DNA from: Octopus vulgaris
Taxonomy: Eukaryota
Direction of reading: 5' to 3'
DNA: 64,000 nucleotides
NCBI GenBank assembly: GCA_951406725.2
Contig: OX597831.1
Coordinates: 73,532,001 to 73,596,000 of the forward strand
Shown here: positions 25,881-50,435 of the stretch, in pieces
How positions within the stretch are numbered: position 1 is the first letter of the stretch
How the letters are laid out: each line of letters starts with the position of its first letter
Program-made: the position numbers and the translations under genes
The notes under the pieces: model-generated
What the model was told of the DNA's origin: nothing
The model's database searches: none
What the model saw: the letters and a program-made list of their open reading frames with translations, nothing else

Positions 25881-26737
25881 ACACACACACACACACACAC
25901 ACGCACACACACGCACACACACACGAGTAAAGCTGTTGATAGTAAAGAAAACTGCCAATGTTCCTGTGATGCGAGTATGGCAACTGACAGGGACGTAGGT
26001 GCTCCCATCTAGTTTACTGTGAGTCAGGTTACTATTTTTAATTCTTAACCAGAACCATGAAACCCTCACCCACTTCAAGAATTAAAAAAAAAACCCAAAA
26101 CACACACACACACACACCTTCAGGTTGTGTTGAAAGATCTATTTCGAAACCAATGAGGAGGAGGTTGGCAGACAGCTGCAACACATGTTCTGATCTTCGC
26201 GTTTAAACTAACCTACATCCCTTTACAGATGGCGGACTTGGATGAAGTTGACTGAGAGCGAGAGAGAGAGAGGGAGGGAGAGAAAGAGAGAGAGGGAGAG
26301 ATAGAGACGGAGAGAGAGAGAGAGGGGGGGGAGAGAGAAAAGCAGAGCAAGCAAATGGACCCACCATCCTTAAATATAGCAACGGAGGAGGGTGTGTGTA
26401 CTAGTGTCAGTCCCTCGACTCCCTGCTCCCTTCCATGCAGCATTCCAGTAATGCAGACTCTGCAGGATTCTCTCCTACATCCAAGTGAAACTGGTACCTT
26501 GAATGGGAGGTGGCGGTGGTGGTGGTGGTGGCAGCGAGCGAGCGTTAAAATGGTAACTGCTGGGAACAGATTAATTCTTTGGTCCAGTGAAGTGAGAAAA
26601 GACAGACTGGAATGAACGCAGCAGTTTGGCTACTGGAATGAGTCTCACTTTAAGCATGGATTACTTGCGTAGAAGCTATTTATATACAGAATGTATAGAG
26701 GGGCATGTCGAGCTTTTATATATATATATATATACTC

Positions 26738-27141
26738 TTTTCTCTCTTTTATTTGTTTCAGTCATTTGACTGCGGCCATGCTGGAGCACCGCCTTTAGTC
26801 GAGCAAATCGACCCCGGGACTTATTCTTTGTAAGCCCAGTACTTATTCTATCGGTCTCTTTTGCCGAACTGCTAAGTGACGGGGACGTAAACACACCAGC
26901 ATCGGTTGTCAAGCAATGCTAGGGGACAAACACAGACACACAATCACACACACACACACACATATATATATACATATATACGACAGGCTTCTTTCAGTTT
27001 CCATCTACCAAATTCACTCACAAGGCATTGGTCAGCCCGGGGCTATAGCAGAAGACACTTGCCCAAGATGCCACGCAGTGGGACTGAACCCGCAACCATG
27101 TGGTTGGTTAGCAAGCTACTTACCACACAGCCACTCCTACA

Positions 27142-27143
<2 letters not shown>
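26738..27143 (-). mobile_element. SINE family 1, full length, young
   Basis: Near-consensus, flanked by (TA)n. Confidence 0.92.
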
Positions 27144-27187
<44 letters not shown>

Positions 27188-28879: not shown

Positions 28880-29038
28880 TAGGAGTGGCTGTGTGGTAAG
28901 TAGCTTGTTTACCAACCACATGGTTCCGGGTTCAGTCCCACTGCGTGGCATGTTGGGCAAGTGTCTTCTGCTATAGCCTCGGGCCGACCAATGCCTTGTG
29001 AGTGGATTTGGTAGATGGAAACTGAAAGAAGCCCGTCG

Positions 29039-29070
<32 letters not shown>

Positions 29071-29281
29071 TGTGTGTGTTTGTGTGTCTGTGTTTGTCAC
29101 CCTAGCATTGCTTGACAACCAATGCTGGTGTGTTTATGTCCCCGTTACTTAGCGGTTCGGCAAAAGAGACCGATAGAATAAGTACTGGGCTTACAAAAGA
29201 ATAAGTCCTGGGGTCGATTTACTCGACTAAAGGTGGTGCTCCAGCATGGCCGCAGTCAAATGACTGAAACAAGTAAAAGAG
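28880..29281 (+). mobile_element. SINE family 1, full length
   Basis: Near-consensus copy; an extra 3' fragment follows at about 29370-29518. Confidence 0.92.
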
Positions 29282-32326: not shown

Positions 32327-32362
<36 letters not shown>

Positions 32363-32391
32363 ATACAATATGTTACATTACTCGGTAGTCA

Positions 32392-32454
32392 AGATAAAAC
32401 TCTGAGTTTCAGATGCCGAAGTGGAAATCCACAACACCATCTCTTCGGTTATCT
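32392..32454 (-). ncRNA. Hammerhead-like motif in PLE 3' region, left arm
   Basis: Mirror image of 34555-34617. Confidence 0.65.
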
Positions 32455-32648
32455 GGCTATTTGAAAACGTTATGAAAAAATACCGTTAAAAATGAAGGGA
32501 AATTACTCTGTTATAACTCTGCTTTGCCTGCGTACTTATACATCGCTCGCATTTTTCGTCATAAAAATTATATAAAAATACATAAAAATATATAAAAATA
32601 TATAAAAATATATAAAATCTTCTTGGGACATAACACAGAAAGCATGTT

Positions 32649-33513
32649 CTATCCGTTTTCTTTAGGGGACCAAAAACGTAACAGAAATTTAGTCACATGT
32701 GGGCATGATCCGAAAAGTTCTGTCCTTGTATTTAGACATGTGGTAGGGTCTAAGCTGCTTTTCCAGATAAGCCATCTCTCCATGTCGCATAAACCGCACC
32801 TTCCGCTGCCGTTAGTATAGGGCTTACATCTGGCCAAAATCTTCCATTGTATGTTATAATCGACACCTTTATCTCTTAAAGACCAAATATGATTGGATAA
32901 TTGTGTCGCTTTTCTTTTGTTCCAGTGCCTAAAGCTCAAAGTGTGGTTATTGAACCTGGCCTTGAAATTACCCTCTGTCAGGCCCACGTATTTCTTCGTC
33001 AAAACGGTGTCTTTAGTGGTTATAGAGTTTACGGTAGCTTCATATATGATGGTCTTGGACATGCAAGCTCCATTTAGCGGGCACAATTCTTTATTCCTGC
33101 ATGAACAGCTGTTTTCTTCTTGTGTTTTTTGTATGTTATGATTGATTATGTTTTTAAAATTGGTAGTTGAACTAAAACTAATTTTTAAATTGTGTCTATT
33201 GAAGAGTTTCCTATAAGCATGGTTAACTGGAAAATGTCTATCTATCAGTGCTAGGAAATATTTACCTATATTGAAGGCCACCTCGGGTGAGTAAGGGCGT
33301 AAACCAGATGACCTTCCTATTTCTATTATTCCTTTTCCTTATTGTTGGGCTGGTGATAGGTGTATATTTTATTTTTTCGCTAAAACCACTATCTTTTAAA
33401 GCTTTATTATAAACTGGGGCAACGCTATTGAAGATGTCCTCATTAGATGAGAGGCTAGAAATCCTCTTACTAATATTTTTAACTAAATTTTTGAATACTA
33501 TAGGGGGATGGCA
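32649..33513 (-). pseudogene. Truncated PLE ORF: RT thumb plus GIY-YIG endonuclease
   Basis: Reads CHPPIVFKNLVKNISKRISSLSSNEDIFN...ALKDSGF...RKVIWFT, frameshift in a C-run near 33296, then PYSPEVAFNIGKYFLALIDRHFP...CSCRNKELCPLNGAC...IIY...YVG...R...NH...CGLC..E...LN. Confidence 0.9.
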
Positions 33514-34360
33514 TCAAAAATTTAGTTAAAAATATTAGTAAGAGGATTTCTAGCCTCTCATCTAATGAGGACATCTTCAATAGCGTTGCCCCAGTTTATA
33601 ATAAAGCTTTAAAAGATAGTGGTTTTAGCGAAAAAATAAAATATACACCTATCACCAGCCCAACAATAAGGAAAAGGAATAATAGAAATAGGAAGGTCAT
33701 CTGGTTTACGCCCCTTACTCACCCGAGGTGGCCTTCAATATAGGTAAATATTTCCTAGCACTGATAGATAGACATTTTCCAGTTAACCATGCTTATAGGA
33801 AACTCTTCAATAGACACAATTTAAAAATTAGTTTTAGTTCAACTACCAATTTTAAAAACATAATCAATCATAACATACAAAAAACACAAGAAGAAAACAG
33901 CTGTTCATGCAGGAATAAAGAATTGTGCCCGCTAAATGGAGCTTGCATGTCCAAGACCATCATATATGAAGCTACCGTAAACTCTATAACCACTAAAGAC
34001 ACCGTTTTGACGAAGAAATACGTGGGCCTGACAGAGGGTAATTTCAAGGCCAGGTTCAATAACCACACTTTGAGCTTTAGGCACTGGAACAAAAGAAAAG
34101 CGACACAATTATCCAATCATATTTGGTCTTTAAGAGATAAAGGTGTCGATTATAACATACAATGGAAGATTTTGGCCAGATGTAAGCCCTATACTAACGG
34201 CAGCGGAAGGTGCGGTTTATGCGACATGGAGAGATGGCTTATCTGGAAAAGCAGCTTAGACCCTACCACATGTCTAAATACAAGGACAGAACTTTTCGGA
34301 TCATGCCCACATGTGACTAAATTTCTGTTACGTTTTTGGTCCCCTAAAGAAAACGGATAG
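33514..34360 (+). pseudogene. Truncated PLE ORF: RT thumb plus GIY-YIG endonuclease, mirror copy
   Basis: Identical 210-aa endonuclease ORF 33728-34360; upstream frame KNLVKNISKRISSLSSN...KVIWFTP is joined by a frameshift at the C-run 33711-33714. Confidence 0.9.
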
Positions 34361-34554
34361 AACATGCTTTCTGTGTTATGTCCCAAGAAGAATTTATATA
34401 TTTTTATATATTTTTATATATTTTTATGTATTTTTATATAATTTTCATGACGAAAAATGCGAGCGATGTATAAGTACGCAGGCAAAGCAGAGTTATAACA
34501 GAGTAATTTCCCTTCATTTTTAACGGTATTTTTTCATAACGTTTTCAAATAGCC

Positions 34555-34617
34555 AGATAACCGAAGAGATGGTGTTGTGGATTTCCACTTCGGCATCTGA
34601 AACTCAGAGTTTTATCT
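34555..34617 (+). ncRNA. Type I hammerhead-like motif in PLE 3' region
   Basis: AGATAA-CCGAAGA-GATG(...GTGGAtttCCAC...)CATC-t-GAAA-CTCAGAG-TT-TTATCT; PLE pseudo-LTRs are known to carry minimal hammerheads. Confidence 0.68.
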
Positions 34618-34713
34618 TGACTACCGAGTAATGTAACATATTGTATAGATAAATTTCCTCTATTTACATAATATTGAGGTCTCTTTCTTTCTTTTGTTAT
34701 CTTACCGTTTTAT

Positions 34714-34748
<35 letters not shown>

Positions 34749-35540: not shown

Positions 35541-35771
35541 GAAAAAGATGAAGATAAACAAAAAGGAGAATAGAGCGAAAGAAAGTGTGAGGTAGAAACG
35601 GGGGGGGGGGATGTTCAATGATTCGTTGGTCTTACATTTCAGTTAGGTTCAAAGTTCATTAAATTCATTGTAAGGTAGATAAAGAATAGAAGTTGGTTGA
35701 GTCTAAGGTCTGTATAGTAAAATAAGGATTCACATACAATAGGGTATTTGAAAAAATATGCACCAGTTATA

Positions 35772-35941
35772 GGCACAGGAGTGGCTGTGTGGTAAGTAGC
35801 TTGCTAACCAACCACATGGTTCCGGGTTCAGTCCCACTGCATGGCATTTTGGGCAAGTGTCTTCTGCTATAGCCCCGGGCCGACCAATGCCTTGTGAGTG
35901 GATTTGGTAGACGGAAACTGAGAGAAGCCTGTCATATATAT

Positions 35942-35975
<34 letters not shown>

Positions 35976-36180
35976 CTGTGTTTGTCCCCCTAGCATTGCT
36001 TGACAACCGATGCTGGTGTGTTTACGTCCCCGTCACTTAGCGGTTCGGCAAAAGAGACCGATAAAATAAGTACTGGGCTTACAAAGAATATGTCCTGGGG
36101 TCGATTTGCTCGACTAAAGGCGGTGCTCCAGCATGGCCGCAGTCAAATGACTGAAACAAGTAAAAGAGAAAGAGAAAGAG
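35772..36180 (+). mobile_element. SINE family 1, full length
   Basis: Near-consensus copy. Confidence 0.92.
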
Positions 36181-36511
36181 GTAAGGTTGGATAAACCTAT
36201 GATTCTGGTCTATGGTTGGTAAGTATCAGATACGATATTCTGGTTGTGTACTCAGAGAAAACCAACCCTATAAGTATTTAGCACTAGGGGCCGGTCCTAA
36301 TCACGTTTTACTTTGAATAGTACTTCGTTGGTATACTCTAGGGTGTCCAACAAGTAAGTTGTAAATCCCCTTGGTGCATTATAATCAAATGATTGATGAC
36401 ATACAGTGGTCAATTATCCATCGTATGTTATTCATCAGATTATATATATATATATATATCAGAAATATTAAATTTCTAAATGTCTCAAAGATACATGAGC
36501 GGTGGTGGAGC

Positions 36512-36672
36512 GAATTACACCACCACTGTTTAGCCCTAGGAAGCATTGAACGCTTCCTGTCGGCTTTGACACATTTTCTGTGTCCTTCACAAATATAAGG
36601 ACACAGAAAATGTGTCAAAGCCGACAGGAAGCGTTCAATGCTTCCTAGGGCTAAACAGCGGTGGTGTAATTC
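36512..36672. repeat. Near-perfect palindrome, 76-bp arms, 9-nt loop
   Basis: 36512-36587 versus 36597-36672, one mismatch seen. Confidence 0.95.
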
Positions 36673-37744
36673 CCTTTACGGGACTGTCACGTTAAGTTGA
36701 CAATAGACAACCACTCTCTCTCTCTCTCTCTCTCTCTATGAATTTGTGGTAAAACATTTTACCTTTGCCCATATAATACAGTAAATGAATTAATTGCAAT
36801 GCAATTCTTAACATTTATGTATTAACTTTGTTGGGTACTTCACTAGCAGTATATTGGATATATGTTATCCCATGGAGGGTTGCATTTACAACCCCTATCT
36901 CAATTTGTATATATATATACACACACAAATTTGTATGAAGTGTTATACATTCCTTCATATTGTTTATCAAATCAGGGTGTGTGTGTGTGTGTGTGTAAAC
37001 TGGAAATTCCTTCAGATTCCTTTCTTCTCAAATATTGCAAAGGCATGTAAGACAAAAATTAAACAGCCATTCAACAAACAGAGACTGACAAAATAAAAAA
37101 AAAGTTAGGTCCAGGTGATGGTGATCCATAGAACTGAAATACCCTCCACAGTGGTGCTCCAGCATGGTTACTGTCTAATGACTGACACTAATTAAAGAAG
37201 AGGTGTGTATAGAAGCTACAGGCTAAGGTGGGAAGTGTTGGGAGTTTTTGTAAAATGTTATAGGAGGGGTCCACAGACATGGGGTGGGGTGGGACACTTA
37301 TAAGACAGTTAAGTACCTGTCTTCACAGTGACACTTACGTTGCTGGGTGAGGGTAGTGATGGTGGTGAGAAGTGGGGGAGGAGGGCAAGGTGTGGGACAG
37401 ACTGAACAGGAAATGGTAAGTAGAGAGCTAGAATGAACAGTGGTGGTGTTTGTGGTAATGGTGAGAGAAGGTGAAGAAAAAAGGGGAGGGAAACCAGCCC
37501 CTAGAGATTGAATCATAATTGAACTTCTGCCCCCCCCCCCCCCCGACACTGCTAGAGGACCTTGCTAGAAGAGAGGCAGAGAATAAAGGCCTGATGAGCA
37601 ATAAAGGGAGAAGAAAGAAAGGACTATATCCTTAATTTCTTTACCCCTGTTTCCTTCTTTTGTACACAAAACATAGACACAATAGTTTAGACAAATATAC
37701 ACTCCTTCCTAAGATATATATACATGTGTATCTATACATTTTGG

Positions 37745-38058
37745 GATTTGGTTTTCAAGATTCTTTATGTGAATTCGTGTGTTGAAGCATATTCTGTTGA
37801 GTCTGGGGAGAGTCATTCTCTTCTTTTTGTGCCTTATAATTTAACACACTCACCGGTAAAAATTCCACTTATTTCTTTTTTATTTTTCTACAATTTTCGT
37901 TGCGTCTTGCAACTTTTTCAATAATTGTTGAGAGTCAAAACTATTGAAAAGGTTGCAAGATGCAACAAAAATTTTAGACAAAAAAAACGAAATGTGGAAA
38001 TTTTACCGGTGAGTGTGTTAAATTATAAGGCACTGAAAGAGAATGACTCTCCCCAGAC
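37745..38058. mobile_element. Head-to-head inverted element with hammerhead-like motifs (family H4)
   Basis: Arms 37801-37923 and 37942-38058; left arm probably extends about 55 nt further; composite motif CTA-TTGAAAA-g-GTTGC(AAGAY)GCAAC-GAAA-AT-TT-TAG. Confidence 0.7.
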
Positions 38059-38109
38059 ACAACAATATATATAAATAAATGTGTAGATACACACACACAC
38101 ATATATATA

Positions 38110-42983: not shown

Positions 42984-43319
42984 ACAATTGCAGCGTGGAA
43001 GGTGTTTGTAAGCCATTTAAGAAACACACAAAAGCCGTTCGATTCACTACAACATTTAAGTTTAATTTGTCGAAATATTTTCGTCGCTTTAAGACCGCGA
43101 CCTCTTCACTGACAAAAATCCGTGCTGCATCCGTGCTGTCAGTGAACAGGTCGCGGTCTTAAAGCGACAAAAATAATTTGACAAACTTAAATGTTGTAGT
43201 GAATTGAATGGCTTTTGTGTGTTTCTTAAATGGCTTACAAACACCTTCCACGCTGCAATTGTTTTCGTTTCAGCACACGATCTCAGATCAAATCACTTGC
43301 TATGCAAGTACATCTCCGT
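42984..43319. mobile_element. Head-to-head inverted pair of hammerhead-bearing element H3
   Basis: Left copy 43131 to 42984 (-), right copy 43137-43319 (+) with about 57 nt extra tail; solo copy at 62216-62420. Confidence 0.8.
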
Positions 43320-49137: not shown

Positions 49138-49469
49138 ACCCCTCAGTGAAATTGATAATCTAGGATTAAGGGTCTGGAACCAAGGATAGTGGGAAATTTG
49201 TTCTATACCCATGTCATAAGTGTCTGTGTGTCTTGCTTGCGAAAGGGTTAAGTTTCCTGCAACTATTATTAATAACTTTTCAGTATCCAAGCCTTCATGG
49301 CACATGTTTACTCATCAGGAATATTATGAAGGCACTTTCTTTACGCCTGACTTAAATAAACAGGAATGTGTTAATGTTTAAATCTAATACCATGAGCTAA
49401 ACCCCTAAAAACCCTCCTCAGTGAAGTTAACAGATAAGAAGACAGTATCTAACAAAAAAAGTAAATATA

Positions 49470-49872
49470 GGCGTAGGAGTGGCTGTGTGGTAAGTAGCTT
49501 GCTAACCAACCACATGGTTCCGGGTTCAGGCCCACTGCGTGACATCTTGGGCAAGTGTCTTCTACTATAGCCCCGGGCCGACCAAAGCTTTGTGAGTGGA
49601 TTTGGTAGACGGAAACTGAAAGAAGCCCGTCGTATATATGTATATATATATGCGTGGGTATGTTTGTGTATCTGTGTTTGTCCCCCTAGCATTGCTTGAC
49701 AACCGATGCTAGTGTGTTTACATCTCTGTCACTTAGCGGTTCGGCAAAAGAGATCGATAGAATAAGTACTGGGCTTACAAAAGAATAAGTCCCGGGATCG
49801 AGTTACTCGACTAAAGGCGGTGCTCCAGCATGGCCGCAGTCAAAAGACTGAAACAAGTAAAAGAGTAAAGAG
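49470..49872 (+). mobile_element. SINE family 1, full length
   Basis: Near-consensus copy. Confidence 0.92.
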
Positions 49873-50017
49873 TATGTGCCCTTCATGGTTTCAAGAGAGG
49901 GTCTAGAGGAGGTTCATTGCTTAAGGGGTTAGAACATGGCAGTAGATGGTCTTTTAAACATTTGTTGTACATTCGTCTTCTAATGAGTTGGAAGAATGTC
50001 TCCAAATTCCTGACATA

Positions 50018-50235
50018 CTCTCTTTCTCTTTTGCTTGTTTCTGTCATTTGACTGCGGCCATGCTGGAGCACCGCCTTTAGTCGAGCAACTCGACCCCGGG
50101 ACTTATTCTTTTGTAAGCCCATTACTTATTCTATCAGTCTCTTTTGCCAAACCGCTAAGTGACGAGGACGTAAACAAACCAGCATCGGTTGTCAAGCAAT
50201 GCTAGGGGACAAACACAGACACACAAACACACACA

Positions 50236-50273
<38 letters not shown>

Positions 50274-50435
50274 TACGATGGGCTTCTTTCAGTTTCCGTC
50301 TACCAAATCCACTCACAAGGCATTGGTCAGCCCGAGGCTATAGTAGAAGACACTTGCCCAAGGTACCACGCAGTGGGACTGAACCCGGAACCATGTGGTT
50401 GGTAGACAAGCTACTTACCACACAGCCACTCCTGC
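50018..50435 (-). mobile_element. SINE family 1, full length, inverted relative to 49470-49872
   Basis: Near-consensus reverse complement. Confidence 0.92.

Follow-up and report, generated by a model that had tools for sequence, protein, structure and literature searches.

Pairing of short and long 3′ ends in head-to-head insertions of a Penelope-like element of Octopus vulgaris

In a stretch of 64,000 nucleotides of the Octopus vulgaris genome (assembly GCA_951406725.2, contig OX597831.1, positions 73,532,001 to 73,596,000; hereafter the window), two near-identical copies of one element lie head-to-head in a (TA)n run. How are the two arms of such a palindrome made? Inverted, 5′-truncated copies with a tail of 30–40 bp, often at one end only, have been published for Penelope-like elements (PLEs) (PMC8557442, PMC3846280), and the accessible parts of PMC8557442 and PMC11167929 call the formation of the inverted copy and the completion of the second strand open.

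Architecture of the palindrome

The palindrome of about 2.4 kb is flanked on both sides by the (TA)n target (left part 32328–32357, right part 34718–34748, no strand assigned), as the earlier note had stated, and the repeat masks any target-site duplication. The left arm (32358–33494, reverse strand) is a 5′-truncated copy with a short 3′ end at position 2514 of the family's unit and has no tail. The right arm (33514–34651, forward strand) is a 5′-truncated copy from unit position 1385, followed by a tail of 66 nt (34652–34717, forward strand) up to the long 3′ end at unit position 2580. This tail, present on the right only, had been given as 65 nt, which is off by one ambiguous base. Alignment of the arms confirmed the palindrome with 1.14-kb arms: along about 1,140 aligned nt, they differ by one 1-nt indel in a C run and by two substitutions (32617/34392 and 32563/34446). 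The earlier count of about three differences holds; a third listed mismatch lies just beyond the arm end. The 19-nt spacer (33495–33513, reverse strand) is element sequence that extends the 5′ part of the left arm alone. It continues the left ORF (CHPPIVF, from residue 421 of the 708-aa protein), as already noticed, and the arms begin at unit positions 1366 and 1385, respectively. The joint, which was read from the arm alignment, shares 1 nt, and the 28-mer across it has a single match genome-wide.

The left ORF remnant (32649–33513, reverse strand) covers residues 421–708 with the thumb, the CxCx5Cx5C linker and the GIY-YIG endonuclease, and the right one (33516–34360, forward strand) covers residues 428–708. 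Both are devoid of the RT core, whose YKDD motif is at residue 346, and the window copy therefore cannot move by itself; it is probably inert. Both frames are broken at the C run (33295–33297, reverse strand; 33711–33714, forward strand), which has 3 C in the left and 4 C in the right arm, whereas 40 of the 43 copies in the C1 census described below have 5 C. The 5-C form was also seen in contigs of other sequencing runs, and the shortened runs in both arms could be homopolymer errors. In addition, each arm carries the 10-bp AT-rich minisatellite of the 3′ UTR (32561–32617, reverse strand; 34393–34445, forward strand). As predicted from the repeat, the palindrome could plausibly form a cruciform or a source of dsRNA.

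Near-perfect mirror symmetry may also come from a fold-back of a read or from the assembly. No read or contig was seen across the window palindrome and no contig shows an empty site, short-read contigs break at TA runs, and the C-run lengths in both arms are of the kind that homopolymer errors could give. Against such an artefact, the mirror stops at the element ends and does not run into the flanks, and the two ends differ by a defined tail. Moreover, the unique flanks occur in contigs of other runs (the left flank in X1–X4, the right flank in X1 and X2), and a single rule holds for 75 insertions of this kind, whose joints are distinct. We therefore consider an artefact extremely improbable.

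Elsewhere in the window, we observed an unrelated palindrome at 36509–36675 (79-nt arms, 97% complementary, 9-nt spacer) and two self-complementary, MITE-like elements of about 280 nt (37789–38070 and 42984–43262). A SINE-like interspersed repeat of about 410 nt and repeats of about 230 nt are present in many window copies that are 83–93% alike (e.g. 1446–1874, 26732–27147, 28880–29281, 35768–36180, 49462–49877 and 50014–50435). Besides the ORF of the element, no long non-repetitive ORF stood out in the 64 kb.

A young family that fits the Hydra clade

A search with the right arm gave at least 49 matches of 99–100% identity, with 40 of 1,666 candidates scored. By exact-pattern counts, the genome contains 1,871 exact 3′ anchors of the family, 601 short ends and 1,333 long ends joined to TATA, and 152 tandem joints in which the tail runs directly into the 5′ UTR. 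According to the tandem arrays, the unit measures about 2,580 bp and has a single ORF of 708 aa, and the family has two fixed 3′ ends that lie 66 nt apart. Among 24 full-length ORFs in the fetched regions, seven are intact. Intact and near-identical copies indicate recent activity of the family, which is also abundant in sequencing runs labelled as three organisms. The proposal of a young, single head-to-head insertion is supported, and intact full-length relatives of the element exist. We conclude that the window almost certainly holds a young, 5′-truncated, non-autonomous, head-to-head insertion of a Hydra-type PLE in (TA)n.

In intact copies, the RT is followed by a C-terminal GIY-YIG endonuclease. 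The protein has RWK at residue 37, SDKT at 113, YKDD at 346, CxCx5Cx5C at 557–571, YVGLT at 596, CxxC at 660–663 and CxH at 691–693, and no CCHH as judged by eye. The linker and the CxxC recorded in the earlier note are therefore both present. Of 7,997 candidates scored in a protein search, 1,022 are related at E ≤ 1e-20; the 120 relatives listed are 41–52% identical, and the Cys motifs occur in 117–119 of these 120. Pfam gave a weak GIY-YIG match below the cut-off (E 0.02) on the fragment and no domain on the full 708-aa protein. TA is found on both sides of 66 of the 67 palindromes that pair a short with a long end.

The accessible parts of PMC8557442 define Hydra by a short unit (<3 kb), a C-terminal endonuclease, RWK, a DKG modified to DKT, CxCx5C, CxxC and CxH around conserved E and N, the absence of CCHH, a hammerhead and (TA)n targets. 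By its motifs and by-eye comparison, the octopus family fits this clade. Naiad, which the element had been said to resemble, is described there with an N-terminal endonuclease, a main body of 3.4–4.4 kb, CCHH and no canonical hammerhead. The octopus family shares with Naiad the (TA)n target, the inverted truncated copies and the one-sided tail, but its endonuclease lies after the RT, and this domain order rules out the assignment. Its unit also measures 2.58 kb and it carries a hammerhead-shaped motif; RWK, DKT, CxCx5C, CxxC and CxH all fit Hydra.

The nearest family described in these parts is Hydra-1_Obim, which likewise has a unit of <3 kb, a single RT-then-endonuclease ORF and a (TA)n target. 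Common to the octopus family and Hydra-1_Obim or its clade are RWK, DKT, CxCx5C, CxxC, CxH, a hammerhead-like motif in the 3′ part and an extra U before GAA. By eye, 27 of the first 44 residues are identical to those of Hydra-1_Obim, which suggests a separate family of the Hydra clade. The hammerhead sequence of Hydra-1_Obim is different, and it is listed without a pLTR, whereas the octopus family has tandem arrays and pLTRs. The tail of 66 nt is also longer than the 30–40 bp described in PMC8557442, which lists an inverted 5′-truncated copy for Penelope-13_HM. With partial tandems (pLTR), an inverted 5′-truncated copy and a one-ended tail, the octopus family has the insertion structure of EN+ PLEs. 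Recently active Penelope-like families are listed in an octopus in the accessible part of PMC13282606, where the clade is not named.

The fetched regions also contained larger arrangements. At one locus (L037/L038, G000:C1:57.21 Mb), 14 kb hold four full units head-to-head and a further unit, with one long and one short outer end, and another (L090–L094, G000:C3:37.22 Mb) is an array of three or more units. A complex insertion (L116/L150, G000:C1:74.578 Mb) has both arms starting from unit 1521 behind the same host repeat, around a further fragment. Seven loci (L185, L204, L210, L211, L176, L096 and L197) carry mini tandem units of about 270–330 nt, which consist of unit ~2390–2430 to 2580 and the first ~90–140 nt of the 5′ region and include the hammerhead-like motif and the tail. 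These are probably non-autonomous, retrozyme-like derivatives of the family.

The hammerhead-like motif

Each arm carries a putative type I hammerhead with a U4C core (left copy 32392–32454, reverse strand, mapped via the arm alignment, predicted cut between 32398 and 32397; right copy 34555–34617, forward strand, predicted cut after 34611). Compared by hand with published Hydra motifs, its layout has a 6-bp stem I, a 4-bp stem II and a palindromic stem III, and there is an extra U before GAA, as in several of these motifs. The fetched regions gave 237 readable cores; CCGAAGA makes up 219 of them and CCGATGA 15, three are other and none is CUGA, whereas all Hydra motifs listed in the accessible parts of PMC8557442 are CUGA. 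The U4C core is thus family-wide. For the U4C variant, considerably lower activity in vitro has been described, yet one sufficient in a viroid (PMC3088659, in part accessible), and hammerheads whose stem III is tiny are regarded as active in dimeric form (PMC4209133, likewise). Rfam reported no hammerhead and only sub-threshold miRNA and snoRNA matches, which are due to the hairpin and the TA repeats; the fold of the motif is not unusual (z −1.6). Of the ribozymes claimed in the earlier note, a hammerhead-shaped motif in each arm stands, although Rfam does not detect it.

We also considered whether hammerhead cleavage sets the 5′ ends of the templates and rejected this. The loci analysed first seemed to show a cluster near unit 2475, which was gone in 81 upstream partial copies, of which one has its 5′ end at 2475; the 20-nt bins from 2420 to 2519 contain 6, 3, 4, 4 and 7 ends. 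The putative hammerhead thus leaves no sign of cleavage in the copy ends. This lack of a pile-up at the predicted cut is in line with the PLE of the anole, for which PMC11167929 in its accessible part describes that hammerhead cleavage is not needed for insertion. In the C1 census, unit 2386–2448, just upstream of and within the hammerhead-like motif, is a hotspot of 5′ ends of both short and long arms, and perhaps marks where transcription begins in the pLTR.

One short and one long 3′ end in nearly every palindrome

The two arms of the window palindrome end at different fixed sites. We mapped 220 loci, merged into 181 regions, on one natural unit and defined a short end as one at unit 2500–2522 and a long end as one at unit 2569 or more. 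Among the 181 fetched regions were 75 complete head-to-head insertions. Of these, 67 were short+long, one was long+long, none was short+short and seven had a non-standard end; where both ends are standard, the two kinds are thus combined in 67 of 68 palindromes. As the fetched loci had been chosen partly by similarity or by a tandem joint, we added a census of the exact-pattern matches listed on C1 0–125 Mb. Here, 47 of 52 were short+long and 5 of 52 were long+other (binomial p 7e-15 against 0.5, the independent expectation most favourable). From coordinates alone, all eight further pairs on C1 are short+long, and no two of the 42 short ends on C2 are paired with each other. Head-to-head insertions are no rarity: they make up 52 of the 89 insertion clusters classed in the census. 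Single-orientation copies of the census (n = 37) end at the long site in 23 cases, at the short site in 12 and elsewhere in two, some of them with a partner arm too short to align. The short+long pairing is a well-supported regularity at the level of the family, and its near-strictness points to a single RNA as the likely template of both arms. In a literature search that mostly covered papers outside subscription, we found none stating a one-short-one-long rule or nested twin priming.

At two loci (L055 and L058), the second arm stops within the tail, at unit 2538, which may be a minor third start site. Nine of 80 long-arm starts lie at 2501–2542, which hints that cDNAs begun at the long site may stall at the short one.

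Two start sites are known from another PLE. For Poseidon PAc of Anolis carolinensis (Frangieh et al. 2024, PMC11167929), the accessible text describes reverse transcription starting at two internal sites that delimit the tail. PAc and the octopus family are alike in their two fixed 3′ ends around the tail, in their tandems and AT-rich target, and in that hammerhead cleavage shows no sign of setting copy ends. PAc belongs to another clade, its start sites lie 111–118 nt into the ORF region whereas those of the octopus family lie upstream of the 5′ UTR, and one-of-each pairing within an insertion is not reported in the part of PMC11167929 that is accessible.

Shared haplotypes and coupled 5′ starts of the arms

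If both arms come from one RNA, they are expected to share variants. The haplotype test covered 30 of 52 simple palindromes (at least 150 nt overlap, 94% identity), with the minisatellite and the ends masked. At 15 polymorphic sites, the minor allele was present in both arms 32 times and the arms disagreed 5 times, compared to 9.2 and 44.8 in shuffled pairs; the extremes over 2,000 shuffles were 19 for agreement and 25 for disagreement. Furthermore, 39 variants were common to both arms and absent from other palindromes; a single divergent copy accounts for 28 of these, and seven other insertions account for the remaining 11.

Shared alleles could also result from gene conversion between the arms, which counts against an origin from one RNA. 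Long inverted repeats are known to recombine, and arms from unrelated templates or from two steps may later have been homogenised and trimmed by gene conversion or cruciform repair. This would account for the haplotypes only, as it does not predict the short+long rule, and the 43 substitutions among 23,789 compared bases between arms argue that conversion is not continuous. We regard this origin as very unlikely. Among the same 43 substitutions, we looked for A-to-I editing of a hairpin template and dismissed it: 1 A>G and 5 T>C stand against 17 G>A and 11 C>T, which is weak evidence against editing.

The 5′ starts of the arms lie within 30 nt of each other in 22 of 52 simple palindromes, where 4.5 are expected. 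The excess is found in long palindromes (7 of 29 within 30 nt against 1.0 expected, with one of a duplicated pair dropped) and in short ones (7 of 14 within 3 nt against 2.2 expected, p 0.001, with starts that range across about 60 nt). Of the 22 near-symmetric cases, 11 have a short arm that extends further 5′, nine have a long arm that does so, and in two both are equal; the window is a near-symmetric case with the short arm further 5′. In the remaining 30 palindromes, the starts are more than 30 nt apart, with asymmetry both ways (16 and 14). The joints show 0–6 nt of microhomology or a few added bases; automated parsing gave no result for 12 of the 52 and misread some owing to variants near the joint. 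Two palindromes of 3.7 kb (L135/L221, G000:C5:72.23 Mb; L131/L222, G000:C7:74.13 Mb) have an identical joint, with the long arm from unit 698 and the short arm from 708, that occurs at these two places only; their flanks differ, and so do their arm-shared variants.

Near-identical arms and near-symmetric joints are also what fold-back self-priming would yield, in which a cDNA, or an antisense template (Arkhipova 2013), copies itself and the tail comes from an endonuclease that resolves the intermediate. Palindromic joints are so interpreted in the accessible part of PMC3846280, and a favoured snap-back site would fit the joint that recurs on C5 and C7. In such a process, the copied arm must lie within the template arm. 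In the window, the short arm extends 19 nt further at its 5′ side and the long arm 66 nt further at its 3′ side; neither arm contains the other, and simple fold-back therefore fails here. The same is true of 11 of the 22 near-symmetric cases, and, among the 37 single-orientation copies of the census, there are 12 with the short end that lack a partner arm of 20 nt or more. Overall, fold-back appears unlikely to us.

A proposed mechanism: nested twin priming on one RNA

In LINE-1 twin priming, a 5′ inversion arises when both ends of the target prime on a single RNA; the position of the second primer, further upstream, varies, and the resulting pieces are free of overlap. In the octopus family, in contrast, the two sites are fixed and nested, and the same stretch would be copied twice. 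In the model that we propose, the RT-EN protein of an intact copy would cut both strands of (TA)n. On the same RNA, cDNA synthesis would start from one DNA end at the short site and from the other DNA end at the long site, the second cDNA displacing the first. Both cDNAs would run 5′-ward and stop near the same point, at unit positions 1366 and 1385 in the window. The 3′ end of each would then cross to the other cDNA through 0–6 nt of microhomology or a few added bases and be extended as a copy of it, so that the product would be a palindrome that is tailed on one side and has a short, one-sided spacer.

The pairing rule, the shared haplotypes and the coinciding 5′ ends together favour nested priming on one RNA. 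Moreover, according to the accessible part of PMC11167929, the purified anole PLE cuts and extends both strands and is predicted to form a dimer. The same text describes no strand preference for either start site in vitro, which counts against nested priming, as do the existence of one long+long insertion and the C5/C7 joint, since an identical joint with different flanks is hard to get by de novo joining. An ectopic copy of the whole palindrome by gene conversion could explain this pair. Finally, for the 30 of 52 palindromes with starts more than 30 nt apart, nested priming needs extra trimming or stalling.

These asymmetric cases are accounted for if a protein dimer holds two RNAs that stem from the same source locus and its subunits prime at the short and the long site, the cDNAs being joined head-to-head. 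This also explains the short+long rule and the shared haplotypes, and it agrees with the dimer predicted for the anole protein (PMC11167929, in part accessible) and with the dimeric action ascribed to hammerheads that have a tiny stem III (PMC4209133, likewise). By itself, it does not account for 5′ ends that match within 3 nt (7 of 14 short palindromes) or within 30 nt (7 of 29 long ones), and we consider it a less likely, though the strongest, alternative. We therefore lean towards nested twin priming on one RNA as the origin of the window insertion. That head-to-head PLE insertions in general arise in this way, with each of the two cut ends priming at one of two fixed sites that lie 66 nt apart on a single RNA, the same stretch copied twice and the cDNAs acting as each other's second-strand templates, we give an even chance.

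Implications

The Hydra clade, inverted copies with one-sided tails and two internal RT start sites are known already, and the window insertion itself follows an ordinary, known pattern. What the family adds is the 67 of 68 pairing, the shared arm haplotypes and the 5′ ends that coincide far above chance, with either arm the longer one. Being very young, with about two thousand 3′ ends and intact ORFs, the family records PLE integration with little decay. It also contributes to the Hydra clade a populous family whose hammerhead-like motif has a non-canonical core and which probably has retrozyme-like derivatives; if the hammerhead reading is true, it works with a hammerhead whose core is weakened throughout. 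The short+long rule, the shared haplotypes and the matched 5′ ends lead to a concrete model that can be tested with the existing in vitro assay. If true, nested twin priming would unite the PLE tail, the inverted copy and second-strand synthesis in one step.
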